A DNA stretch of 64,000 bases from assembly GCF_013315695.1 (NCBI RefSeq), contig NZ_CP054353.1. One strand, written 5' to 3'. Source of the stretch: Escherichia coli (GTDB lineage Bacteria; Pseudomonadota; Gammaproteobacteria; Enterobacterales; Enterobacteriaceae). Both the position numbers and the translations under genes were made by a program. Below the pieces are notes generated by a model. That model did no database searches. It had not been told where the DNA came from and worked only from the letters and a program-made list of their open reading frames with translations. Positions 39,416 to 52,212 of the stretch are shown here, one piece after another (the stretch's first letter is position 1; each line of letters opens with the position of its first letter).

Positions 39416-40669
39416 ATGCTGGAACAAATGGGCATTGCCGCGAAGCAAGCCTCTTATAAATTAGCGCAACTCTCCAGCCGCGAAAAAAATCGTGTGCTGG
39501 AAAAAATCGCCGATGAACTGGAAGCACAAAGCGAAATCATCCTCAACGCTAACGCCCAGGATGTTGCTGACGCGCGTGCCAATGGCCTTAGCGAAGCGAT
39601 GCTTGACCGTCTGGCACTGACGCCCGCACGGCTGAAAGGCATTGCCGACGATGTGCGCCAGGTGTGCAATCTCGCCGATCCGGTGGGGCGGGTAATCGAT
39701 GGCGGCGTACTGGACAGTGGCCTGCGTCTGGAGCGTCGTCGCGTACCGCTGGGGGTTATTGGCGTGATTTATGAAGCGCGCCCGAACGTGACGGTTGATG
39801 TCGCTTCGCTGTGCCTGAAAACAGGTAACGCAGTGATCCTGCGCGGCGGCAAAGAAACCTGTCGCACTAACGCTGCAACGGTAGCGGTGATTCAGGACGC
39901 CCTGAAATCCTGCGATTTACCGGCAGGCGCAGTACAGGCGATTGATAATCCTGACCGCGCGCTGGTCAGTGAAATGCTGCGTATGGATAAATACATCGAC
40001 ATGCTGATCCCGCGCGGCGGGGCTGGTTTGCATAAACTGTGCCGCGAACAGTCGACAATCCCGGTGATCACTGGTGGTATAGGCGTATGCCATATTTACG
40101 TTGATGAAAGCGCAGAGATCGCTGAAGCATTAAAAGTGATCGTCAACGCGAAAACTCAGCGACCGAGCACATGTAATACGGTAGAAACCTTGCTGGTAAA
40201 TAAAAACATCGCCGATAGCTTCCTGTCCGCATTAAGCAAGCAAATGGCGGAAAGCGGCGTGACGTTACACGCAGATGCTGCTGCGCTGGCGCAGTTGCAG
40301 ACAGGCCCCGCGAAGGTGGTGGCGGTTAAAGCCGAAGAGTATGACGATGAGTTTCTGTCATTAGATTTGAACGTCAAAATCGTCAGCGATCTTGACGATG
40401 CCATCGCCCATATTCGTGAACACGGCACGCAACACTCCGATGCGATCCTGACCCGCGATATGCGCAACGCCCAGCGTTTTGTTAACGAAGTGGATTCGTC
40501 CGCTGTTTACGTTAACGCCTCTACGCGTTTTACCGACGGCGGCCAGTTTGGTCTGGGAGCGGAAGTGGCGGTAAGCACACAAAAACTCCACGCGCGTGGC
40601 CCGATGGGCCTGGAAGCACTGACCACTTACAAGTGGATCGGCATCGGTGATTACACCATTCGTGCGTAA
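39416..40669 (+). CDS. proA: Gamma-glutamyl phosphate reductase
   Basis: 417 aa aldehyde-dehydrogenase-family protein directly after proB. Confidence 0.95.
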
Positions 40670-40783
40670 ATAAAACCGGGTGATGCAAAAGTAGCCATTT
40701 GATTCACAAGGCCATTGACGCATCGCCCGGTTAGTTTTAACCTTGTCCACCGTGATTCACGTTCGTGAACATGTCCTTTCAGG

Positions 40784-40859
40784 GCCGATATAGCTCAGTT
40801 GGTAGAGCAGCGCATTCGTAATGCGAAGGTCGTAGGTTCGACTCCTATTATCGGCACCA
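40784..40859 (+). tRNA. thrW: tRNA-Thr (anticodon CGU), thrW-like
   Basis: 76-nt GCCGATATAGCTCAGTTGGTAGAGCAGCGCATTCGTAATGCGAAGGTCGTAGGTTCGACTCCTATTATCGGCACCA; cloverleaf arms, CGT anticodon, encoded CCA. Confidence 0.9.
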
Positions 40860-41024
40860 TTCAAACATCTCCCCAAGTCTACTAAAGTCTTTCAAAACCC
40901 CTTATAATCCGCGTATTAAAGCCCCGTTCGTCTTTTGACGTCTACTAAAGTCCCTCAAAATCTACGGTCAGATGGGGGTACTTATGGGGGTATTTGCTGT
41001 TCGGTTTAGTGGAGGTACCCCCAA

Positions 41025-42239
41025 GTGAAACTCAATGCCCGTCAAATAGACACAGCCAAGCCAAAAGAGAAGGCTTACAAGCTGGCCGATGGTGGCGGTT
41101 TGTATCTCTTGGTAAAACCTAATGGAGGTAAATACTGGCGACTTAAATATCGTGTAGCTGGTAAAGAGAAGCTATTGGCACTAGGTGTTTATCCTGAGGT
41201 TACTCTAGCCGATGCTCGGGCAAAACGTGAAGATGCGAAAAGAGGTATCGCTGGTGGTATCGAACCGATGGAAGCGAAACGAGAGGAAAAGATTGCCCGG
41301 GAAACGCAGTTAAACAACACCTTCAAAGATATTGCCCTTGAGTGGCACAGCAGCAAATTAAAAAAATGGTCTGCTGGTTATGCTTCAGACATCCTCGAAG
41401 CCTTCAACAAAGATGTGTTCCCTTACATTGGCAAAAAACCCATCGCCGAAATCAAACCACTTGAACTTCTGAATGTGCTGCGTCGCATCGAGGGGCGCGG
41501 TGCTACAGAAAAAGCCAAAAAAGTGAGGCAACGGTGCGGGGAAGTTTTCCGCTATGCAATAGTCACTGGTCGCGCAGAGTATAACCCTGCACCAGACCTT
41601 ACTAGCGCGATGCAAGGCCATGAATCTAATCATTACCCTTTCCTTACAGCCAAAGAATTACCTGATTTTTTCAAGGCATTGTCCAGTTACTCAGGAAGCG
41701 CATTGGTTGTTATGGCGGCTCGTCTACTGATTATCACCGGCTTGCGGACTGGCGAACTACGTGGCGCATTATGGGATGAAATTGATTTCAACAAGGCTAT
41801 CTGGGAGATACCCGCTTCACGTATGAAAATGCGGCGGCCTCATATTGTGCCATTGTCTGAGCAGGCTCTTTCGCTTATTGGGAAGATTAGAGAAATAACA
41901 GGCAATTACCCTCTTATGTTTCCCGGGCGCAATGATCCAAGGAAAACAATGAGCGAGGCCAGCATAAACCAAGTGTTTAAGCGCATTGGCTACGCTGGAC
42001 GTGTAACTGGTCATGGGTTCCGGCACACTATGAGTACGATTTTGCATGAGCAGGGCTATAACACTGCGTGGATAGAAACGCAGCTCGCTCACGTTGATAA
42101 GAACTCAATTCGTGGCACATACAACCATGCGCAATATCTGGATGGAAGGCGGGAGATGCTTCAATGGTATGCCGACTATATGGATTCTCTCGAGCATGGC
42201 GGAAATGTGGTGCATATGGTGTTTGAAAAACACGCATGA
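41025..42239 (+). CDS. int: Tyrosine site-specific integrase (P4-type)
   Basis: 404 aa, GTG start with GGAGG SD; N-terminal arm-binding-type region (GGGLYLLVKPNGGKYWRLKYR) and C-terminal catalytic R-H-R-Y region (HGFRHT ... RGTYNHAQY). Confidence 0.85.
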   Translation: MKLNARQIDTAKPKEKAYKLADGGGLYLLVKPNGGKYWRLKYRVAGKEKLLALGVYPEVTLADARAKREDAKRGIAGGIEPMEAKREEKIARETQLNNTFKDIALEWHSSKLKKWSAGYASDILEAFNKDVFPYIGKKPIAEIKPLELLNVLRRIEGRGATEKAKKVRQRCGEVFRYAIVTGRAEYNPAPDLTSAMQGHESNHYPFLTAKELPDFFKALSSYSGSALVVMAARLLIITGLRTGELRGALWDEIDFNKAIWEIPASRMKMRRPHIVPLSEQALSLIGKIREITGNYPLMFPGRNDPRKTMSEASINQVFKRIGYAGRVTGHGFRHTMSTILHEQGYNTAWIETQLAHVDKNSIRGTYNHAQYLDGRREMLQWYADYMDSLEHGGNVVHMVFEKHA

Positions 42240-42890
42240 AACAACTGGACAAGTATACAGAGGTTTACTAAAGTATAAGGGAGTAGATTGATAAAAACTC
42301 ACAGAGGATTGCTATTTAACAGTTAGCCATGGAGAAGGGCAATCGCTCTTTTAACAACGAAGATGGAATCTTCTACGCAGCTGAAAAGCTGGATGCTCTT
42401 TAACAGCCTTTGGTGCTTTTCTGATGCAGGAAAGAATAGGGATACATGCACCTTTACAATGCATGTAATGATTCATCCATGAGGCTGCGGAGCGCTGACA
42501 AAGCGCAATTGCTCTTTAACATTGATGTGGGCGGGATGGTTCGTCCCGCAGTGACCGATAGATTTCTATCGGGAAACATACAATGATTCAAATATGAATC
42601 TACGGCGCTGACAAAGCGCAATTGCTCTCTTGCCTGCCCACCATGCCCTGAAAAAGGGCGTTCTTTAAAACTACTGGATGTCACGCCTAATAGCGTGATC
42701 CTGCCGAAATGCAGGGTAGCTCTACCCTTGTGGAGCAAACAAACCAAAACAATCTGACTATCTTTTATAAAAGACCGCAATATGTTTTTCATATTGTGGT
42801 CTTTGGCGTATTCGACATTTGACGCAAATAAAACTCTCGCCATTCGTTGCAGGAGGGGGTTATTGCGTCATTAGTACAGGATATTAATAA

Positions 42891-43094
42891 ATGGCTAATT
42901 ACAATTCATTAATTCGTCTCTCTGAAGTTCAAAGGCGAACTGGTTATAGCAAAGCATGGATTTATCGTCTTATTAGTCAGGGGAGGTTCCCTAAACAGGT
43001 AAAAATTGGAAGTCGGGCAATTGCTTTTGTTGAGTCTGAAATAGATGAATGGATTGAGAAGTGTATATTAGAATCTAGAGACGAGGTGGCCTGA
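42891..43094 (+). CDS. alpA: AlpA-family phage transcriptional regulator / excisionase-like protein
   Basis: 67 aa; AlpA signature RLSEVQRRTGYSKAWIYRLISQGRFPKQVKIGSRAIAFVESEIDEWI. Confidence 0.8.
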   Translation: MANYNSLIRLSEVQRRTGYSKAWIYRLISQGRFPKQVKIGSRAIAFVESEIDEWIEKCILESRDEVA

Positions 43095-43525
43095 TGGAAA
43101 AGAAAAACCGCCCATTACAGGCGGCTAATTCAGATATTCGTGTATCTGATGTTACGCCCCTTACAAAATCCCTTCAAGCACCAAAGCGCACACCGAAAAA
43201 GCATCGTGCCAGAGTCTATATGCTGCGTACTGGTATAGAGGGATGGACAGAAAATGACATTCTTCGCTACTGCCGTCTGTCTTCTGGTCGTAACTATGCA
43301 ACAGAGTTAGAACGCCAGCTTGGAATCACTCTGGAGCGTATCGACGAAAAGAATCCTGATGGTATCGGAACACACCTTCGCTACCGTTTCTCCTGCCGTG
43401 GTGATGTTCTGAAAGTGATCACTCATGTTAACCATCTTGCGAACATAAATGATCACAACGGACTTTCTCAGCAGGAAATTGCCGACATTCTGAAACTCTA
43501 CCCGGACGCGTTTAACGCCGCCTAA
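43094..43525 (+). CDS. Hypothetical basic protein
   Basis: 143 aa; begins at the alpA stop; no recognisable motif. Confidence 0.4.
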   Translation: MEKKNRPLQAANSDIRVSDVTPLTKSLQAPKRTPKKHRARVYMLRTGIEGWTENDILRYCRLSSGRNYATELERQLGITLERIDEKNPDGIGTHLRYRFSCRGDVLKVITHVNHLANINDHNGLSQQEIADILKLYPDAFNAA

Positions 43526-43537
43526 CGGAGACTGAAA

Positions 43538-44371
43538 ATGAACATCGAAAAAAGCAGATTAATTTCTGAGGCCGCCCCTCATCTGAACGCCTCTCTGGGC
43601 ACAATTAACGGTAATGAATTTGCCGCAATTGTCCCGGTTATTCCTGGTCATATCGGTGGGCGTGAAACCAATATTGTTAGCGCAAAAGCGTTACACAAAG
43701 CGTTGGGCGTGGGAAAAGACTTCTCTACATGGATCACTGATCGCATCTCTGAATATGACTTCACCATTGGGCACGATTACTCAGTCCATAAAACAATTTC
43801 CCCAAATTTGGGGAAAAGCCCGAATGGCGCGGCTTACAGCAAGATAAAGCACTCTGGCAGACCCGGTAAAGACTATCTGTTAAGTGTCGGAATGGCGAAA
43901 GAACTGGCAATGATCGAACGCAATGATCAGGGTCGCGCTATCCGCCGTTATTTCATCCAGTGCGAGGAAGAATTACAGCGTAGCGTTCCTGAAATCGCCG
44001 CCCGCTATCGTCGCCAGCTAAAAGCCCGTCTCAGTGCCGCAAACAACTTTAAGCCAATGTGCGATGCGCTGAATATGGCCCGTGCCGAGATGGGTAAAAC
44101 GACGCAGCAACACCACTACACAAACGAGAGCAATATGATTTCTCGTATCGTTCTTGGTGGGCTAACTGCTAAGCAGTGGGCGCGGATAAATGGCTATTCT
44201 GGCGAACCTCGCGACCATATGAACGCAGAACAGCTTGAGCACCTCTCATATCTCGAAAGCACCAATATCACGTTAATTGATATGGGCATGGAATATGAGC
44301 AGCGCAAAGGAGAACTCACCCGCCTGTCGCAACGCTGGCTCGCCAAGCGTCTGGAGGCGGTCCATGTTTAA
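43538..44371 (+). CDS. Phage antirepressor-like protein
   Basis: 277 aa; N-terminal SAKALHKALGV...FSTWITDRI block resembles the antirepressor N-terminal domain. Confidence 0.5.
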   Translation: MNIEKSRLISEAAPHLNASLGTINGNEFAAIVPVIPGHIGGRETNIVSAKALHKALGVGKDFSTWITDRISEYDFTIGHDYSVHKTISPNLGKSPNGAAYSKIKHSGRPGKDYLLSVGMAKELAMIERNDQGRAIRRYFIQCEEELQRSVPEIAARYRRQLKARLSAANNFKPMCDALNMARAEMGKTTQQHHYTNESNMISRIVLGGLTAKQWARINGYSGEPRDHMNAEQLEHLSYLESTNITLIDMGMEYEQRKGELTRLSQRWLAKRLEAVHV

Positions 44372-44546
44372 GCCGACAGGAACACCACAACCTCAAAAAC
44401 GCTACAAAGATGCCCACGGAGCACTCGTTACTGTCGAAAGCGTGTCTCACAACCGAGTGACGTTTTATCGCGACGGGTATCAATCGCCATGCGTACAACC
44501 GCTGGCGCGCTTCATGAAGGAGTTCGCGGAGGTTAACAAATGCTAA
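44364..44546 (+). CDS. Hypothetical small protein
   Basis: 60 aa from ATG at 44364 (ATGTTTAA overlap with the preceding stop). Confidence 0.3.
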   Translation: MFKPTGTPQPQKRYKDAHGALVTVESVSHNRVTFYRDGYQSPCVQPLARFMKEFAEVNKC

Positions 44547-45607
44547 CCGTCCAGAAGAAGATATTTTCACTGGCTGGTATGTCACCAAAATCCAGCAATA
44601 TGACAGCAAAGTCTGGCATTAATACAGCAGATACAAGCAAAGTTTATCATTTTCTGGTGGTAGGAGCGGATGCCTTAACTATGTCAGAAATTACGGTCGA
44701 TGGTGTTAGCGTTGAGAAGGTCAGCGGCTGCGCCAGAGAATTTCTGGTCGTAGATGGCTTTCTCTGCTCGCGTAGTGACTCCACAAAAACCTTCGTCCAT
44801 ACGCGCGACGTTAACGAAATGAGCGCGATGTATTGTGCATCTGGTGCTTCCAATACTGAGTTTTCGGAGTCCATAAAAAAGAGCTTGCCGTTATGCGGCA
44901 ACACGGTTTATGGTTATAAGGCACCTCATAAAACGGGTGCCGGGATTGGCGTCCTGAAAATTCTGAAGGCGACATATGACGCGCCGAGCGTCTTTTTTTA
45001 TGTCGTAGGTCTGACTCACCCATTTTTTGGGCGTTGGTGTATAATCCAGCGCCTTTGTCAATCAATGGTGGCTCAGGCGGGGGCTTCTTCGGAAGCGCCG
45101 GTATCCTTCAGAGCCGGTTACGCCAACCCTGTCTGGGCTACCACCAGCGAAATTGGCGTTTCCGGTGGTAGCGTAACCTGCTATCTGAAGGAGGCTGCCA
45201 CATGCTGGCTACTACCCCTACCCAAAAACCGCAATTTATCTGGATTATCGCCGCAGTTCGCCGCGATTGCCCGACAATTACCGCCAAAATTCATCATATT
45301 GCTGCCGAGTCTGAACGCGATGCTCGCCGTTCTCTGGTGCGCGATCACGTCTGCTTTTTTGCTGGTCGTATCCGCATGGAGGTGGCACATGATTAAAACC
45401 TACGATGTGCATATGGATCCCCTCGAACGCACAAGCCAGATCATCACACTGACAGAAGTGATTAACGACATTCTGGTGAGCAACTCTCCCTCACGAGACG
45501 AAAGGCTGAAGGCGTTACTCGCGATATTGGATCTCGCCGTTCGTGACGTTCATTTCCTGCTGGAAGGTGGCGAAATGCCAGGAAAAACGGGGGCAACCAA
45601 TGAATAA
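44540..45607 (+). CDS. Hypothetical ORF, possibly over-called or chimeric
   Basis: 355-aa open frame with heterogeneous composition; the only long open frame over 44.5-45.6 kb; its C-terminal part could be an independent small gene. Confidence 0.25.
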
Positions 45608-45794
45608 CTCAATTAATACCCCTCGCCTTACGTCCGCACTTCAATTAATCGAGCAAGCAGCGGCTGTCCTGGTTGCTGTCAGTCTTTCGGCTGAAGAAAT
45701 GGACGCTGCTGATGTCGTGGATGCGATTAAAGCGTGCTCATCTTTGGTTAACGATGCCCGTGCCGAGCTGGTAATTCTTGGGGGTGAAAAATGA
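45600..45794 (+). CDS. Hypothetical small protein
   Basis: 64 aa from ATG at 45600. Confidence 0.3.
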   Translation: MNNSINTPRLTSALQLIEQAAAVLVAVSLSAEEMDAADVVDAIKACSSLVNDARAELVILGGEK

Positions 45795-46054
45795 ATATCA
45801 ACTTAATTTATCGTCATCCGTGTGAGCTGGAAATTGAATCATTGCTGGGGCGTGAAGAGCCATATCCAGACTCATTCACTCCCGCAGATTGCGCGACTGA
45901 ACGGCTTACCAGAGCGCGCACAGGTCTGGTTCATGTGATGAATGAGATTGTTCCCTCGGTGGGAGGGGAACAGGCGACAGTAATCAATAGCTGGCTACAA
46001 AAAGTTACCTCCCTGATAGATATCGGTTTAATCGATGTGGAGAGTGCGAAATGA
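45791..46054 (+). CDS. Hypothetical small protein
   Basis: 87 aa; overlaps neighbours by 4 nt on the same strand. Confidence 0.35.
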   Translation: MNINLIYRHPCELEIESLLGREEPYPDSFTPADCATERLTRARTGLVHVMNEIVPSVGGEQATVINSWLQKVTSLIDIGLIDVESAK

Positions 46055-46272
46055 CCAACATCCAGCTCATTGAAGCGCAATGTCGCATCGAACAGGTTCA
46101 GACTGTTTTAGGGTTCTGGCTTGAAGGGGCCAGCCCCAGCAACAGAGACAAGTTAATGATTGGCGCGGTTATGTCACTGCTCAATGGCGTACCAGAAGCT
46201 ATTCAGGAAGCGGACGAATTGTTGGGCAAATATGAGTTACAGAATCATTCAGGCGAGGCGAAACATGAATAA
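46051..46272 (+). CDS. Hypothetical small protein
   Basis: 73 aa; 4-nt overlap with the upstream gene. Confidence 0.35.
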   Translation: MTNIQLIEAQCRIEQVQTVLGFWLEGASPSNRDKLMIGAVMSLLNGVPEAIQEADELLGKYELQNHSGEAKHE

Positions 46273-46867
46273 TTTCTTAACTTTCCATGCAGAAGCAACG
46301 CCTGACGGCGTAAACATCATGTACCGCAGCAACGATGGCATGACAGAACGCGTTGAGGCCGTCTCATATATTGATGCCGTAAATCGTCTGGATGCCGGGG
46401 ATTATGACGATAAACCAGATGAAGGTATGTCAATACATCTCGCTATTGCCGATGGCGGCAACCAGGGATATTTCGATTACACATCACAGCATAACGTCAT
46501 TATGTGGAGATGGCTGATCGCAACAGTATTCATGCTGGAAATGAGAGAGGAAAACGGCACTGTCAGCATCATTGATGATACTGGCAATCCTTCCGAAGTG
46601 GCTGTTTATTCCAACGGCATCGTCGCCATGCCGCTGTATCCAGTAGCAGAGCGCCTCGCTATGGCAAACAACATTGAGGGCGCGATGATAGAACGTTTTG
46701 GCATCGAGTCTGGCACAGAACGCGCCATCATTTTCTACAGAGCCATGATGGATGTGGAACAAGGAGCACTGACTCCATTTGGTCGTGAAACGCTTGCTGA
46801 ACTTCACAACAGCTTTATAGCTGAACTGAATGAAAACGGCATGCCAGCGGAACCAGTGACGCACTGA
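46265..46867 (+). CDS. Hypothetical protein
   Basis: 200 aa from ATG at 46265 (MNNFLTF). Confidence 0.4.
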   Translation: MNNFLTFHAEATPDGVNIMYRSNDGMTERVEAVSYIDAVNRLDAGDYDDKPDEGMSIHLAIADGGNQGYFDYTSQHNVIMWRWLIATVFMLEMREENGTVSIIDDTGNPSEVAVYSNGIVAMPLYPVAERLAMANNIEGAMIERFGIESGTERAIIFYRAMMDVEQGALTPFGRETLAELHNSFIAELNENGMPAEPVTH

Positions 46868-46877
46868 GGATGGAGCC

Positions 46878-47219
46878 ATGATTACTAAAAATTTCCGACT
46901 GAATGCGCTGGCAAATAAGTATGCGTCGGCACTGTATAACCACATTACCTCCACCAGCGGCGGGGACTATTTCATGGTTGATGCGGACGGCGAGGCCGTA
47001 CGTGTGGAAATCGTCAATGGAGTAAAAGGCGTTCGCAGCCTGATCGATAGCTACACACTGGCAGCCATGAAAGTGTTCTACCCGCAGTGGGAAACCGTGG
47101 GGATCGAGCTTCTTGAGCGTTGCGTCACTAAGGACGGATTGACTGACGTCGGGCGTGAGATATGGCAAAGCATGGTTAATGACATGGGCGCAACTGTAGC
47201 GGGAGGTTCTCATGCGTGA
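46878..47219 (+). CDS. Hypothetical protein
   Basis: 113 aa; same-strand operon member. Confidence 0.35.
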   Translation: MITKNFRLNALANKYASALYNHITSTSGGDYFMVDADGEAVRVEIVNGVKGVRSLIDSYTLAAMKVFYPQWETVGIELLERCVTKDGLTDVGREIWQSMVNDMGATVAGGSHA

Positions 47220-47583
47220 AAATGCAGAAATGGCGCTTAGCTCCGCAATCGGAGAGCAGGTGGCAAAGATTGCTGGTGCTGTGTGGATTCATAACCTTCA
47301 TTCTACTGGTGAAGAGAAAATGGCAATTCAGACGCCAGAGGGACGCACCATTACTACATCTCTGAAGCCGTCAGATGTTTGTGATCTGATTTGCGCATTC
47401 ATGTACCCAGCAATGAGGACTGTCCACGGCGATAAGTGGAAACTTGCGACAACCGCTGAATTTGATATGTGGCTAAACAATGATGGCATGCTGACTGATT
47501 ACGGAATAACCAAGTGGCAGATGCTGGTTAGCCATATCGCAAACGCTATAGACCACGTGGGGTACGGTGATGCGAAACATTGA
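47212..47583 (+). CDS. Hypothetical protein
   Basis: 123 aa; overlaps the primase start. Confidence 0.35.
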   Translation: MRENAEMALSSAIGEQVAKIAGAVWIHNLHSTGEEKMAIQTPEGRTITTSLKPSDVCDLICAFMYPAMRTVHGDKWKLATTAEFDMWLNNDGMLTDYGITKWQMLVSHIANAIDHVGYGDAKH

Positions 47584-50326
47584 TCTTATCCGTCAGGTTA
47601 TCAGTGCGTCTGAAAACAACTGGCCTCATGTGCTGGGCTGCCTGAACATAAATGTCCCTGACTCTCCGCGCCGTCATGCTCCCTGCCCTGCATGTGGGGG
47701 CAAAGATCGATTCCGGTTCGATGACAACGGGCGCGGTAGCTTCATCTGTAATCAGTGCGGCGCTGGTGATGGGCTGGATTTAATTAAACGCGTAAATAAC
47801 TGCGACACAACAGAGGCGGCGCTTCTTGCCGCTGATGTTCTGGGTATTGATTACCGGACAACGGAAACACCAGAAGCCACCAGCCAGAAACGGGAACAAC
47901 TGGAAACCGAGCGCCAGCGACGCGAACAGGAGCGCCTGAAAAGGGCAGAGAAGGACGAACAACAAAGACGGGATACGTTTTCCCGTCAGTTTGATGACAT
48001 GCGCAGAAAGGCTGTAAACGGCAAATCTGATTATCTGGTTGCGAAAGGGGTAGGTGATTTTACATTCCCCGTGTTGCCCGATGGATCTCTGTTGCTGGCG
48101 CTGGTGGATAAATCCGGCGCAGTCACAGCAGCACAGACTATTACATCACATGGTGAAAAAAGACTCCTGACAGGTTCAGCAAAGCGGGGGGCATATCACG
48201 CCATAAACGCGCCAGAAACAACACAGAGCATCTTAATCGCAGAAGGGCTGGCAACGGCATTATCTGCCCATTTAATTCGTCCAGAGGCGCTGACAGTGGC
48301 GGCGATTGATGCCGGGAACCTGTTATATGTCGCCCAGGTACTGCGGGATAAATTTCCTTCAGCACAAATCATCATTGCTGCGGATAACGACCACAGCGAA
48401 GGAAGACAAAACACGGGGAGAATAGCAGCAGAAAAAGCAGCTTTATCTGTTTCTGGATGGGTGGCATTACCCCCGACAGATCACAAAGCAGACTGGAATG
48501 ATTACCACCAAAAACACGGCATTAAATGCGCCACAGAAGCGTTCAATAAGTCAATGTACCAACCACAGGGTAATGGCGTGAAACATGAGCCACAGACCAT
48601 TGAGGGAAGCGATTTTAAGGTTATGGATACCGACCCACTGAAACCAAGAATAGAAAGCCGCGAGGATGGTATTTATTGGGTATCTCCGAGAGCTGACAGC
48701 CAGAGTGGAGAAATCATCAATAACGAAAGCTGGTTATGTTCTCCGTTAAGCGTTATCGGTACTGGCAGAGACGATAAAGACCAGTATCTCATTCTTCGCT
48801 GGCTGTCGTTTGGTTCTGAAACGCCGACAACCGCTGCCATTCCACTGGCTGATATTGGTGAACGTGAAGGATGGCGCACACTTAAAGCTGGTGGGGTAAA
48901 TGTCACGACCAAAAGCAGCCTCAGAGCAATACTGGCAGACTGGCTACAACGCAGTGGCTCTCGTGAATTGTGGCGTGTTGCTCATGCCACTGGCTGGCAA
49001 TGCGGAGCGTACATCATGCCTGATGGGGAAATCATCGGAACACCTGAAAATCCTGTGCTGTTCAGCGGGAGAAGCTCAGCCGCAGCCGGATATACCGTCT
49101 CAGGGAGCGCGAAAAGCTGGCGTGATAACGTGGCGCGTCTGGCCTTTGGTAACTATTCAATGATGACCGGGATCGGCGCAGCACTGGCAGCGCCATTGAT
49201 TGGGCTGGTGGGCGCTGACGGGTTCGGCATTCATTTCTATGAGCAGTCGAGCGCAGGTAAGACCACCACGGCAAACGTGGCGAGCAGCTTATACGGCAAC
49301 CCTGATTTACTGCGGCTGACGTGGTACGGAACCGCGCTGGGGCTGGCAAATGAGGCCGCCGCCCACAATGACGGACTAATGCCGCTTGATGAAGTTGGTC
49401 AGGGCGCTGATCCTGTCAGCGTTTCACAGTCTGCCTATGCGTTATTTAACGGTGTAGGGAAACTGCAAGGCGCTAAAGATGGTGGAAACCGGGATCTAAA
49501 ACGCTGGCGTACAGTGGCAATCAGCACCGGAGAAATGGATTTAGAAACATTTATCGCTACTTCCGGGCGAAAAACCAAAGCCGGGCAACTGGTGCGACTG
49601 CTGAATATTCCGTTGAGTAAAGCAGTACGCTTTCACGATTACCAGAACGGAAAACAGCACGCAGACGCACTGAAAGACGCTTACCAGCATCACCACGGCG
49701 CGTCCGGGCGTGAGTGGATTAAATGGCTGGCAGACCACCAGCAACAGGCTATTAAAACCGTTCGTGACTGCGAAAGCAGATGGAGAAGCCTGATCCCATC
49801 CGATTATGGTGAGCAGGTTCACCGTGTAGCCGCGCGATTTGCCATTCTGGAGGCCGCATTGTTGTTAGGCGAGGTTGTAACAGGCTGGGATGCTCAGACA
49901 TGCCGTGATGCGATACAGCACAGCTATAACGCATGGTTGCGCGAGTTCGGCACAGGTAACAAAGAGCATCAGCAGATTATTGAACAAACGGAGGCATTTC
50001 TTAATGCCTATGGGCTTAGCCGTTTTGCACCATTTCCATACAGCCCGGCAGATTTGCCCATCAAAGATTTAGCCGGATACCGTCAGCGTGGAGAACATGA
50101 CGAAAGCCCAATGATTTTCTACACATTCCCGGCCACATTTGAAAAGGAGATCGCATGTGGTTTCAACGCAAAACAGTTTGCTGAAGTGTTGAAAAAAGCC
50201 GGGATGCTAACCCCACCAAACAGCGGTCGTGGATACCAAAGAAAATCACCACGTATTCAGGGACGACAAATAAACGTTTATGTACTCAATTACCAGCCAG
50301 GAGATTATAACTCATCTGAAGAATGA
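47567..50326 (+). CDS. Satellite-type DNA primase/helicase (zinc-finger + TOPRIM + D5-like NTPase)
   Basis: 919 aa; N-terminal CPACGG...CNQCG zinc finger, TOPRIM-like region (ILIAEGLATALS), Walker A SSAGKTT in the C-terminal half. Confidence 0.8.
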   Translation: MMRNIDLIRQVISASENNWPHVLGCLNINVPDSPRRHAPCPACGGKDRFRFDDNGRGSFICNQCGAGDGLDLIKRVNNCDTTEAALLAADVLGIDYRTTETPEATSQKREQLETERQRREQERLKRAEKDEQQRRDTFSRQFDDMRRKAVNGKSDYLVAKGVGDFTFPVLPDGSLLLALVDKSGAVTAAQTITSHGEKRLLTGSAKRGAYHAINAPETTQSILIAEGLATALSAHLIRPEALTVAAIDAGNLLYVAQVLRDKFPSAQIIIAADNDHSEGRQNTGRIAAEKAALSVSGWVALPPTDHKADWNDYHQKHGIKCATEAFNKSMYQPQGNGVKHEPQTIEGSDFKVMDTDPLKPRIESREDGIYWVSPRADSQSGEIINNESWLCSPLSVIGTGRDDKDQYLILRWLSFGSETPTTAAIPLADIGEREGWRTLKAGGVNVTTKSSLRAILADWLQRSGSRELWRVAHATGWQCGAYIMPDGEIIGTPENPVLFSGRSSAAAGYTVSGSAKSWRDNVARLAFGNYSMMTGIGAALAAPLIGLVGADGFGIHFYEQSSAGKTTTANVASSLYGNPDLLRLTWYGTALGLANEAAAHNDGLMPLDEVGQGADPVSVSQSAYALFNGVGKLQGAKDGGNRDLKRWRTVAISTGEMDLETFIATSGRKTKAGQLVRLLNIPLSKAVRFHDYQNGKQHADALKDAYQHHHGASGREWIKWLADHQQQAIKTVRDCESRWRSLIPSDYGEQVHRVAARFAILEAALLLGEVVTGWDAQTCRDAIQHSYNAWLREFGTGNKEHQQIIEQTEAFLNAYGLSRFAPFPYSPADLPIKDLAGYRQRGEHDESPMIFYTFPATFEKEIACGFNAKQFAEVLKKAGMLTPPNSGRGYQRKSPRIQGRQINVYVLNYQPGDYNSSEE

Positions 50327-50350
50327 GCTTCTTCATGTGCGTAGAAAAGG

Positions 50351-50456
50351 TGTTGGTTCAGTTGGTTCAATTTGTAAAGAGTATTGTTTTATAAGGATTT
50401 TATTCTTTTTATTGAACCAACACTGAACCAACAACACGGTATTTTGAACCAACACA
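50351..50456. promoter_or_regulatory. Candidate replication origin: inverted clusters of TGAACCAAC iterons flanking an AT-rich spacer
   Basis: GTTGGTTCAGTTGGTTCAA (50352-50370) then ~42 bp AT-rich, then TGAACCAACACTGAACCAACAA and TGAACCAACACA (50413-50456); begins 25 bp after the primase stop. Confidence 0.5.
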
Positions 50457-50774
50457 ATGTGACTGAATTGATGCGCACAACACCTGGCTGGCATCAGAGA
50501 GTGTTTTACGAGACTTTCGTAAAATCCTGTGTACAAGGGCGTGACGTTTTTGAAAGTGAGCACTACGAAATTTTCGTAGTTCAGAAAACAGCCTCTGAGA
50601 AGTTGTTATGCCTGTTCAGCAAACCATCCGCATAGCTGATCGCGAATCAAATTACCAATGGAGCCAGAAGCAAGGGCAGAACTGAAAAGCGCCTGCCGTG
50701 AAGAGTAATGCGACACCATAAATATAGTTTTTAGAGTCCATAAAAAACCTGTCAAAACCTGACACACAGAACGA

Positions 50775-50806
50775 TGCCACCAGCTACTGAGCGGTGGCAT
50801 TTTTTT
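50775..50806 (+). terminator. Rho-independent terminator
   Basis: Hairpin TGCCACC-AGCTACTGAGC-GGTGGCA followed by TTTTTTT. Confidence 0.6.
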
Positions 50807-50901
50807 GTGCTATTTGTTTCATATTTTGCAATTACGATGATGAATATTGCGATTTGTGAAACTATAATAACTGTTGTTTTATACAGTTCTAAGGGGGCGT
50901 T

Positions 50902-51063
50902 ATGGCTATTTCAGTAAAGCCGGTATTGATAAGTGAGAAGCAAATGGAAGCGATAAAGAAAATTCAGGAAGAGCAGCGTAAAAAATCAGGAATTGGAGTA
51001 GCGCCAACTCTGCATGAAATTGCACGAGGGTTAATAGATAAGGCGCTGGCAGGCTGTATGTGA
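50902..51063 (+). CDS. Small ORF (53 aa) not in the ORF track; possible small DNA-binding protein
   Basis: ATG at 50902 with AAGGGGG SD 7 nt upstream; charged helical composition. Confidence 0.35.
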   Translation: MAISVKPVLISEKQMEAIKKIQEEQRKKSGIGVAPTLHEIARGLIDKALAGCM

Positions 51064-51079
51064 AAATGGATGGCATCGC

Positions 51080-51541
51080 ATGGAACTAAAATTTATTGAT
51101 AACCCTGTGCGATTACAGGCCTTTCTTAACGAGCCAGGCAATACCGAAAATATTGTTGAGCCGGGGCACACGTACTACATCAAGCCTGATGCGGTATATC
51201 TCGGCATCTACGAAGGATTAGTGCTGGCTGGCGTTCATGAAGTGCGTAACTTCTGGCATAGCGTTGTTGAATGCCATGCGGTGTACGACCCCGGATTCCG
51301 TGGTGAATATGCACTGCAAGGACATCGATTATTCTGCAAATGGCTTCTCGAAAACTCACCATTCCTTAACAGCATTACCATGGTTCCTGACACCACGAAA
51401 TACGGACGGGCAATTATCCGTTTGCTTGGCGCTACCCGTGTTGGTCATCTTGATGATGCTTATATCAGATGTGGTAAACCCGTCGGCGTAACGCTTTATC
51501 AGTTAACTCGGCAACAATATAAGGAATTCAGCGAATGTTAA
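51080..51541 (+). CDS. Hypothetical protein (candidate virion-associated protein)
   Basis: 153 aa; first of three tightly coupled same-strand genes. Confidence 0.4.
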   Translation: MELKFIDNPVRLQAFLNEPGNTENIVEPGHTYYIKPDAVYLGIYEGLVLAGVHEVRNFWHSVVECHAVYDPGFRGEYALQGHRLFCKWLLENSPFLNSITMVPDTTKYGRAIIRLLGATRVGHLDDAYIRCGKPVGVTLYQLTRQQYKEFSEC

Positions 51542-52212
51542 TTACCCATATAGCTTATAAACATCTCAATCGTGCCGTATACGAAAAAGGCGGTGATGGT
51601 GGTGCCTCTAAAGCTCAGGCGAAGGCCCAGCAGCAGGCAATTGATTTGCAGCGCGAGCAGTGGAATACGGTGATGAATAATCTCAAGCCGTATGCAGAAG
51701 TCGGATTGCCTGCTTTACAACAACTACAAGGACTGATGACTCTGGAAGGGCAGAATAAAGCCGCGAATGATTTCTTTGGTTCTGGTTTATATAAAACACA
51801 GGCAGATCAGGCCCGTTATCAGAACCTTGTCTCAGCAGAAGCTACCGGGGGGCTTGGCTCAACAGCTACCAGTAACCAGTTATCTTCCATTGCGCCCATG
51901 CTTTATAACAATTGGCTCAGTGGGCAAATGCAAAATTATGGAAACCTGCTAAATGTCGGGATGAATGCGGCATCAGGGCAGGCAACAGCAGGGCAAAACT
52001 ACGCCAATAATACCGGACAACTCTTGCAGGGGCTTGGCGCTATTCGTGCAGGTCAGGCGCAGCAGCCATCCAGTCTTGCGCGTGGTATTGGTGGGGCGGC
52101 ATCAGGCGCTTTAGCGGGTGCGCAACTTGGTTCCGTTGTTCCGGGTATAGGTAATGTCGCCGGGGCTATTGGTGGTGGGCTTATTGGTCTTGTTGGGGGG
52201 CTTGGATTCTAA
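51535..52212 (+). CDS. Hypothetical protein with Gly-rich hydrophobic C-terminus (candidate phage ejection/internal protein)
   Basis: 225 aa; Gln/Asn-rich middle, C-terminal GxxxG-rich tail (GIGNVAGAIGGGLIGLVGGLGF). Confidence 0.4.
   Translation: MLITHIAYKHLNRAVYEKGGDGGASKAQAKAQQQAIDLQREQWNTVMNNLKPYAEVGLPALQQLQGLMTLEGQNKAANDFFGSGLYKTQADQARYQNLVSAEATGGLGSTATSNQLSSIAPMLYNNWLSGQMQNYGNLLNVGMNAASGQATAGQNYANNTGQLLQGLGAIRAGQAQQPSSLARGIGGAASGALAGAQLGSVVPGIGNVAGAIGGGLIGLVGGLGF

Follow-up and report, generated by a model that had tools for sequence, protein, structure and literature searches.

Tandem phage-type nut sites upstream of alpA in an Escherichia coli phage-inducible island may couple satellite activation to helper N protein

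How Gram-negative phage-inducible chromosomal islands (PICIs) detect their helper phages has been an open question since 2018; published accounts go no further than stating that alpA is activated by the helper and that the inducer is being studied. The closest described element is EcCIMP1 of E. coli MP1, a PICI reported in 2025 at the same site as the island analyzed here, and its induction, excision and packaging by its helper, the P22-like phage Kapi1, have been shown for EcCIMP1 itself, not for the present allele (PMC11773190). A lux fusion spanning −449 to +50 of alpA, which in MP1 takes in the entire 427-nt int–alpA gap and 22 nt of int, has low uninduced activity, is strongly induced by mitomycin C in the Kapi1 lysogen only, and can still be induced, though less strongly, when alpA is deleted (PMC11773190). 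The same study names no inducer and does not mention antitermination. It reports a Kapi1-like prophage in 2 of 21 EcCIMP1 strains, with diverse helpers suggested by the authors, finds that EcCIMP1 does not lower Kapi1 titres, either on induction or on infection of non-lysogens, and leaves the superinfection immunity of EcCIMP1 unexplained (PMC11773190).

A second point of comparison is provided by helper-embedded PICIs, for which satellite expression is proposed to be coupled to helper transcription (PMC10111431); these satellites are embedded in a late gene of the helper, in an arrangement that allows regulation in cis, and apparently ride helper late-gene transcription. The satellite described below lies elsewhere on the chromosome, and would instead capture the early protein N in trans by means of its own nut sites. 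A full-text literature search for alpA, PICIs or satellites in connection with nut, boxA, boxB or antitermination found no paper making this link. The components of nut sites are classical; what appears to be new is that a satellite would use them as a tandem sensor of several specificities that acts in trans.

We analyzed a 64,000-nt stretch of E. coli DNA (the window) in which phoE, proB, proA, tRNA-Thr(CGU), a tyrosine integrase gene, a 651-nt gap and alpA follow one another, all on the + strand. The features that frame the gap are:

40784–40859, + strand: tRNA-Thr (CGU), the island integration site, with an att core-like sequence TCCTATTATC at 40843 (by comparison with the EcCIMP1 att core, PMC11773190)
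41025–42239, + strand: tyrosine integrase (int) of the island, phrog_1 (E = 1e-77), stop codon at 42237–42239
42891–43094, + strand: alpA, master activator of the island, WP_000035054.1, an accession shared with AlpA of EcCIMP1 and of the common allele

Downstream of alpA are a 143-aa ORF, an Ant-like antirepressor, an ash-family protein, a 919-aa primase, and P22-type head-morphogenesis and DNA-ejection genes. With int, alpA, primase and accessory genes at tRNA-Thr, and with its homology to EcCIMP1, the island is a PICI of the EcCIMP1 type: both elements occupy the tRNA-Thr site by proA (PMC11773190), their AlpA proteins are identical, and BLAST against the MP1 chromosome gives 98% DNA identity over 39523–42412 and 42660–52372, from int to the ejection-protein genes. 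Beyond 52372 the window island diverges and carries IS1 copies; since homology to EcCIMP1 stops there, and no second copy of the att core is found within the window, the right part of the island is either rearranged or beyond the window. The two IS1 transposase ORFs (53641–54144 and 57144–57647) are identical, with ~3 kb between them.

The P22-type genes carried by the satellite (gp14-, gp7- and gp20-like) are located at 51080–53630 and in the MP1 locus (L258), and relatives of the island have a gp16-like gene; head and ejection genes of its own are unusual PICI cargo, and this fits P22-like helpers. The 143-aa ORF (43094–43525) overlaps the alpA stop codon, is kept in EcCIMP1, contains the basic stretch KRTPKKHRARV, and has no match in the PHROG families searched.

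A preliminary description had presented the gap, which extends from the int stop codon to the alpA start codon at 42891, as a non-coding regulatory hub with duplicated 24-bp sites and a motif recurring at least four times. The repeats are borne out: the 24-mer GCGCTGACAAAGCGCAATTGCTCT is exact at 42492–42515 and 42605–42628 and at these two positions only, with no match at up to three mismatches in 100 shuffles, and GCTCTTTAA, allowing one mismatch, occurs five times in the 651 nt, always on the + strand, where 0.056 occurrences are expected from the rest of the window (Poisson P ~4e-9). The ORFs in the gap are short (46 aa on the + strand, 129 aa on the − strand) and are missing from the common 427-nt allele or cut short in it, and the gap is therefore, as had been claimed, effectively non-coding; neither ORF was retained as a gene. 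RefSeq lists the 129-aa frame (42454–42843, minus strand), which runs across the array, as hypothetical protein WP_248699324.1 in some genomes; this annotation is probably spurious, the frame being truncated in the 427-nt allele. The regulatory role assigned to the gap is supported by the published reporter, in which the EcCIMP1 counterpart gives helper-dependent induction of alpA (PMC11773190).

Judged by sequence, the repeats TGCTCTTTAACA(G/T) are boxA, the RNA site of NusB/NusE, and not DNA operators. Exact copies of TGCTCTTTAACA lie at 42394 and 42510, and the copy at 42310 departs from it at one position; CGCTCTTTTAACAA (42344), GTTCTTTAAAAC (42660) and the degenerate TGCTCTCTT (42623) are related to it. 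The nut-site boxA, CGCUCUU(U)A, is present in five copies on the transcribed strand, and each of these five consensus copies has a stable hairpin (−3 to −12 kcal/mol) no more than 11 nt downstream. The exact copies are identical at 12/13 positions to rrnB boxA TGCTCTTTAACAA of the MG1655 leader (rrn boxA consensus UGCUCUUUAACAA), and the island copies are identical or near-identical to the boxA elements of Kapi1 nutR (TGCTCTTTAACAG), Kapi1 nutL (GGCTCTTTAACAT) and P22 nutL (CGCTCTTTAAC).

The preliminary description had instead proposed probable operator sites, a reading in which the repeats would be bound by AlpA or Int on double-stranded DNA. Their position near a regulator gene, and the fact that AlpA auto-activates, speak for this reading; we nevertheless consider it highly improbable, as (i) all copies lie on one strand and match RNA signals of rrn, lambda, P22 and HK97, including the boxB elements of P22/HK97/933W and lambda described below, (ii) helper induction survives the loss of AlpA, and (iii) islands with related AlpA proteins (73–83% identical) do not have the motif. 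The boxA repeats were accordingly rejected as AlpA operators. A better placed element is found next to alpA:

42820–42870, no strand assigned: inverted repeat TGACGCAA ... TTGCGTCA, bracketing the presumed alpA promoter and conserved in both E. coli lineages

This inverted repeat is a likelier candidate for the AlpA auto-activation operator than the boxA repeats.

The succession of boxA copies and hairpins suggests that the gap specifies a leader RNA with six tandem nut modules, each consisting of a boxA followed by a hairpin, in phage order:

42310–42340, + strand: nut-1, boxA TGCTATTTAACAG, 3 nt, hairpin GCCATGGAGAAGGGC
42344–42391, + strand: nut-2, HK97-nutR-type, boxA CGCTCTTTTAACAA, spacer hairpin GAAGAUGGAAUCUUC, UACG, hairpin CAGCUGAAAAGCUG
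42394–42434, + strand: nut-3, boxA TGCTCTTTAACAG, identical to Kapi1 nutR boxA, then hairpin CUUUUCUGAUGCAGGAAAG
42492–42506, + strand: boxB copy A, GCGCUGACAAAGCGC, identical to P22 nutL and HK97/933W nutL boxB
42510–42549, + strand: nut-4, boxA TGCTCTTTAACAT, spacer TGATGTGG (like the P22 nutL boxA/spacer), hairpin GCGGGAUGGUUCGUCCCGC (−12.2 kcal/mol)
42575–42622, + strand: HK97/933W nutL homologue, spacer hairpin GAUUCAAAUAUGAAUC, UACG, boxB copy B GCGCUGACAAAGCGC (42605–42619)
42623–42659, + strand: nut-5, degenerate boxA TGCTCTCTT, 13 nt, lambda nutR boxB GCCCUGAAAAAGGGC
42660–42699, + strand: nut-6, phi21/Kapi1-like, boxA GTTCTTTAAAAC, 9-nt spacer TACTGGATG, hairpin UCACGC-CUAAUA-GCGUGA
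Island hairpin: UCACGCCUAAUAGCGUGA

Exact phage boxB sequences are found three times. The first 15 nt of the 24-mer (GCGCTGACAAAGCGC, at 42492 and 42605) are the boxB of P22 nutL and of HK97/933W nutL, and GCCCTGAAAAAGGGC at 42645–42659, overlooked in the preliminary description, is the 15-mer of lambda nutR boxB; the phi21-like hairpin of nut-6 is similar but not identical (CUAAUA vs CUAACC in the loop). The resemblance extends to whole layouts. Region 42575–42622 is 94–96% identical to annotated Stx-phage nutL, in the orientation of the pL transcript, and 44/50 identical to HK97 nutL, the latter match taking in the spacer hairpin and the UACG linker. The order of elements in nut-2 is that of HK97 nutR (unpaired boxA, spacer hairpin, UACG, boxB), with the same predicted fold, and in the L101/L105 alleles the nut-2 hairpin is UCGCUGACAAAGCGG, which has TACGTCGCTGACAAAGCG in common with HK97. 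Nut-6, which is kept in all alleles examined, has the layout of Kapi1 nutR: boxA, 9 nt (TACTGGATG vs TTCTGGCCT), a 6–7 bp stem, and a CUAA-- hexaloop, the Kapi1 hairpin being UUCACCU-CUAACC-GGGUGAG. BLAST of sub-regions of the gap against phage genomes found the nutL piece alone, hairpins of 14–18 nt being below BLAST sensitivity.

Compared with the nutL/nutR sites of lambdoid phages (lambda, P22, phi21/Kapi1, HK97/933W/H-19B), the island array thus has the boxA consensus, boxB elements identical to those of lambda nutR and P22/HK97 nutL, HK97-type and Kapi1-type layouts, and a position on the presumed transcript between a promoter-like site and a predicted terminator. It differs in that six modules are packed into ~400 nt rather than one site per operon, in that three N-specificity classes are mixed, in that another boxA comes right after many of the boxB hairpins, in that the element is a satellite with no N gene in the window, and in that the gene under presumed control is a satellite activator instead of phage early genes. 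The distance from boxA to the boxB downstream of it is as in Kapi1 nutR and P22 nutL for nut-6 (9 nt) and follows the HK97 nutR layout for nut-2, whereas upstream spacing is odd for the lambda boxB and for both P22-type copies, each of which has a boxA directly downstream. Several boxB hairpins are placed as in rrn, 0–3 nt before a boxA, and not, as in lambda, 8–9 nt after one; this counts against a role of N.

At 42500–42517 and 42613–42628, AAAGCGC, from the loop and 3' arm of each P22-type boxB, can pair almost throughout with the boxA behind it (GCTCTTT), giving an alternative hairpin around AATT; binding of N to boxB could therefore free boxA. Alternative structures have reportedly been described for H-19B nut sites.

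The rrn-like order raises the question of whether host factors alone could account for the array. In such a case, boxB–boxA would load Nus factors and SuhB and shield the leader and operon from Rho, with the helper being sensed elsewhere, e.g., at the alpA promoter; a helper-encoded activator at that promoter would also fit the reporter data. The island and the rrn leader (boxB-boxA-boxC) indeed have several properties in common: boxA identical at 12/13 positions to rrnB, many hairpins 0–3 nt before a boxA, like rrn boxB, and a long (600-nt) untranslated RNA with a C-rich stretch, a natural Rho target. After the boxA of nut-4 (boxA-4), TGTGGGC (42525–42531) recalls rrn boxC (TGTGTGGGC; UGUGUGGG), but the other boxA copies have no such match, and a clear boxC is absent. 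The island array is also followed by a strong predicted hairpin terminator, which the rrn system would pass poorly. On the other hand, the island hairpins are of phage type, and neither the exact copies of lambda and P22/HK97 boxB nor the complete layouts of HK97 nutL, HK97 nutR and Kapi1 nutR are explained by host-only antitermination; reiteration into six modules is unneeded, as one boxA is enough in rrn; and constitutive antitermination into alpA is at odds with the low uninduced reporter activity. We therefore regard an exclusively rrn-type role as unlikely.

We also examined the borders of the array, which lies between a conserved promoter-like site and a covarying hairpin terminator, both of them predictions:

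42246–42274, + strand: promoter-like site 'P_nut', TGGACA, 17 nt, TAAAGT
42700–42736, + strand: two conserved hairpins, CCUGC-CGAAAU-GCAGG (compensatory U-A to C-G) and GCUCUAC-CCUU-GUGGAGC
42737–42769, + strand: unstructured C-rich stretch, 7 C and 1 G in 33 nt, a candidate Rho-utilisation site
42770–42815, + strand: predicted terminator hairpin, 15 bp at 42770–42804, −20.8 kcal/mol, z = −6.1

The −35 hexamer of P_nut and its spacing are kept in three lineages, with TAAAGT as −10 hexamer in the window, TAACGT in the tRNA-Gly lineage (L007) and TACAGT in the folD-adjacent lineage (L019). The P_nut spacer (42253–42268) contains a partial palindrome, degenerate in the window and AGTATAC-AGAT-GTATACT in the tRNA-Gly lineage (L007:2912–2930), which could be a repressor or Int/Xis site overlapping the promoter. 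At the other border, the terminator hairpin has undergone one compensatory and one wobble-repairing change, and between the two E. coli lineages h12, h13 and the terminator together differ by two compensatory double changes and by three one-sided changes that preserve pairing, none of the changes being disruptive; in the neighbouring hairpin h14, one pair is broken in two sequences. The U tail of the terminator is UUUUUG in L007 and UUUUGUUG in L019, and its weakness in the thrW lineage (CUUUGG, as in the window) counts against control by N.

The leader as a whole (42281–42830) is highly structured (z = −6.8), and because of its G-U pairs the fold is particular to the + strand. The suggestion that the region encodes a small RNA holds in part. 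The gap resembles a transcription unit of its own, with promoter-like site, structured leader and terminator, and when uninduced should, on the model set out below, give a terminated non-coding leader of ~520 nt. No Rfam family matches it. Searches with Rfam covariance models at permissive E-values gave no relevant family: two chance-level matches (E = 2.1 and E = 4) were obtained within 42240–42890, and the only match above the Rfam gathering score is the tRNA gene at 40784.

If the modules are nut sites, an N protein has to be supplied. The cognate N that accompanies a nut site on the same element is lacking from the window: tblastn with the N proteins of Kapi1, HK97, P22, phi80 and lambda found no homologue, and no real ORF of the window contains an arginine-rich motif. 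An island-encoded N was rejected on the basis of these empty tblastn searches of the window, and any N must consequently come from a phage in trans.

From the sequence identities, the module layouts, the conservation and covariation, the lack of any window-encoded N and the identity to EcCIMP1, we infer a scheme of promoter activity, hairpin termination, N binding and read-through, and we consider it on balance probable that helper N loads at the nut sites of the leader and that RNA polymerase then reads through into alpA. A constitutive promoter (42246–42274) would drive a leader comprising the six boxA-plus-hairpin modules, copied from or mimicking several lambdoid phages, then the C-rich stretch, the terminator (42770–42804) and alpA. 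With no phage present, transcription would end before alpA, and the island would be silent. Upon induction of, or infection by, a lambdoid helper, its first early protein, N, would bind the matching boxB on the nascent leader, where lambda-type, P22/HK97/933W-type and phi21/Kapi1-like boxB are on offer, and NusB/NusE would bind the adjacent boxA. RNA polymerase would thereby become resistant to termination, pass both the candidate Rho site and the predicted terminator, and transcribe alpA, whose product would boost its own expression and turn on excision and replication.

In the known helper, Kapi1_020 is a phi21-type N whose residues 8–29 have exactly the sequence of the peptide in the phi21 N–boxB structure PDB 1NYB, and of the boxB loops CUAACC is that of phi21 and GACAA that of P22. 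The Kapi1 boxB loops (CUAACC) differ from that of the island (CUAAUA), and since Kapi1 is the sole experimentally shown helper, this counts against N as the inducer. The same applies to the P22-type boxB of MP1, in which a G-to-T change weakens the stem and favours the hairpin GCUUUG-UCGCUGA-CAAAGC. In MP1 EcCIMP1 this boxB reads GTCGCTGACAAAGCGC (L258:21095–21115, minus strand), and the N of the MP1 helper is of phi21 type, not P22 type. An array with several specificities fits the finding that just 2 of 21 EcCIMP1 strains carry a Kapi1-like prophage.

A broader reading, to which we assign even chances, is that N is captured in trans by a nut 'reader' of at least three classes that gates alpA, such that any lytic lambdoid phage would act as trigger and the modules would track local phages, and that the RNA may in addition soak up N and NusB/E and so aid the superinfection immunity of EcCIMP1. 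Were titration the primary role, a constitutive leader would act as a decoy for phage N and/or NusB-NusE and damp the early genes of superinfecting lambdoid phages, thereby providing immunity or interference. Each RNA would offer up to six boxA and at least four boxB copies for this purpose, and transcribed consensus boxA on multicopy plasmids is said, in the older lambda literature, to inhibit lambda through titration of NusB. A single-copy chromosomal promoter would, however, need to prevail over the nut sites of the phage itself, EcCIMP1 leaves Kapi1 titres undiminished, and a position just upstream of a terminator and a master activator is not required of a sponge; we find such a primary role quite unlikely, even if sponge and induction roles may coexist.

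If the N-gated reading holds, the island would be, within the literature searched, the first mobile element to use heterologous nut sites to sense phage N; the broad helper range would be explained, nut sites would evolve as exchangeable specificity modules, and the array would provide natural parts for phage-responsive genetic switches. For the EcCIMP1 family, this reading provides a concrete and readily testable candidate mechanism with named cis elements and trans factors.

Of 5426 complete E. coli genomes, 291 (~5%) carry the right half of the leader. Alleles differ by gain or loss of whole modules and by loop swaps. The 427-nt allele of MP1 and EC17GD31 has the promoter-like site, nut-1, nut-2, nut-6 and the terminator, and is without 42413–42659; these 247 nt, extra in the window allele, hold the second P22-type boxB, the HK97 nutL-like segment, nut-4 and the lambda boxB. 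In short alleles, a P22-type boxB directly follows the nut-3 boxA in place of CUUUUCUGAUGCAGGAAAG. The nut-1 hairpin has a perfect lambda-type stem, GCCCUGGAGAAGGGC, in other alleles, the loop of hairpin h3 is GAAA in some alleles and GACAA in others, and the nut-6-type loop of the tRNA-Gly lineage is CUAAUC. One of the two P22-type boxB copies is mutated in L011; L256 has an intact lambda boxB followed by a perfect CGCTCTTTAAAAC, decayed in its close relatives L007 and L255.

A related array is found in a distant, folD-adjacent lineage (L019, L264–L269), where the same promoter-like site precedes boxA modules with GNRA-tetraloop hairpins, one of them an HK97-nutR homologue with a GCAA loop. 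In one member of this lineage (L267:1789–3000), the same AlpA is preceded by a variant of the promoter-like site, and a DUF6387 gene replaces the nut array.

The mosaic alleles and module-sized insertions and deletions, the near-identity of 42575–42622 to HK97/933W nutL, and the unrelated gene in place of the array in L267 are what would be expected if fragments of lambdoid immunity regions had been left in the island by illegitimate or homologous exchange with prophages, as functionless debris. Such an origin would require at least five independent nut-derived segments, all in one orientation and with no phage genes alongside; it is further opposed by the conservation of boxA and the compensatory changes in hairpins, by the similar array built of different sequences in the distant lineage L019, and by the promoter and terminator that consistently flank the array. 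We consider recombination debris very unlikely.

We then analyzed the occurrence of the array beyond its immediate family. In an IMG/VR scan with hairpin h12, almost all loci came from the known island family, in addition to L133–L135; the scan with the 15-mer h1 gave mostly unrelated contigs among the matches listed, and that with the promoter anchor mostly chance matches plus the known family. In species-representative genomes, the promoter anchor with TTTAA gave a single chance match, which indicates that the family seldom occurs beyond E. coli strains and a single further lineage.

Among ~70 distinct alpA upstream regions, ~60 belong to AlpA relatives (73–83% identical) and contain 0–1 boxA, and a loose scan for boxB-type loops upstream of these relatives revealed a weak + strand excess (11 vs 2). 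The nut array is found neither in EcCICFT073, which is induced by lambda and phi80, nor in most of the AlpA-bearing islands examined, and it is therefore not a general mechanism of PICI induction; a role in all PICIs was ruled out on these grounds. The int–alpA gap of EcCICFT073 (L005:17313–17365), an unrelated PICI of E. coli CFT073, contains CACTCTTAAAAAT, which is identical at 12/13 positions to the boxA region of lambda nutL, CGCTCTTAAAAAT. Downstream of it, across 8 nt, lies a 12-bp hairpin (z = −4.3) whose loop is GUAAAA, and GAACAAC repeats are found further upstream. Judging from this arrangement, CACTCTTAAAAAT and its hairpin could be a different nut-like or terminator element.
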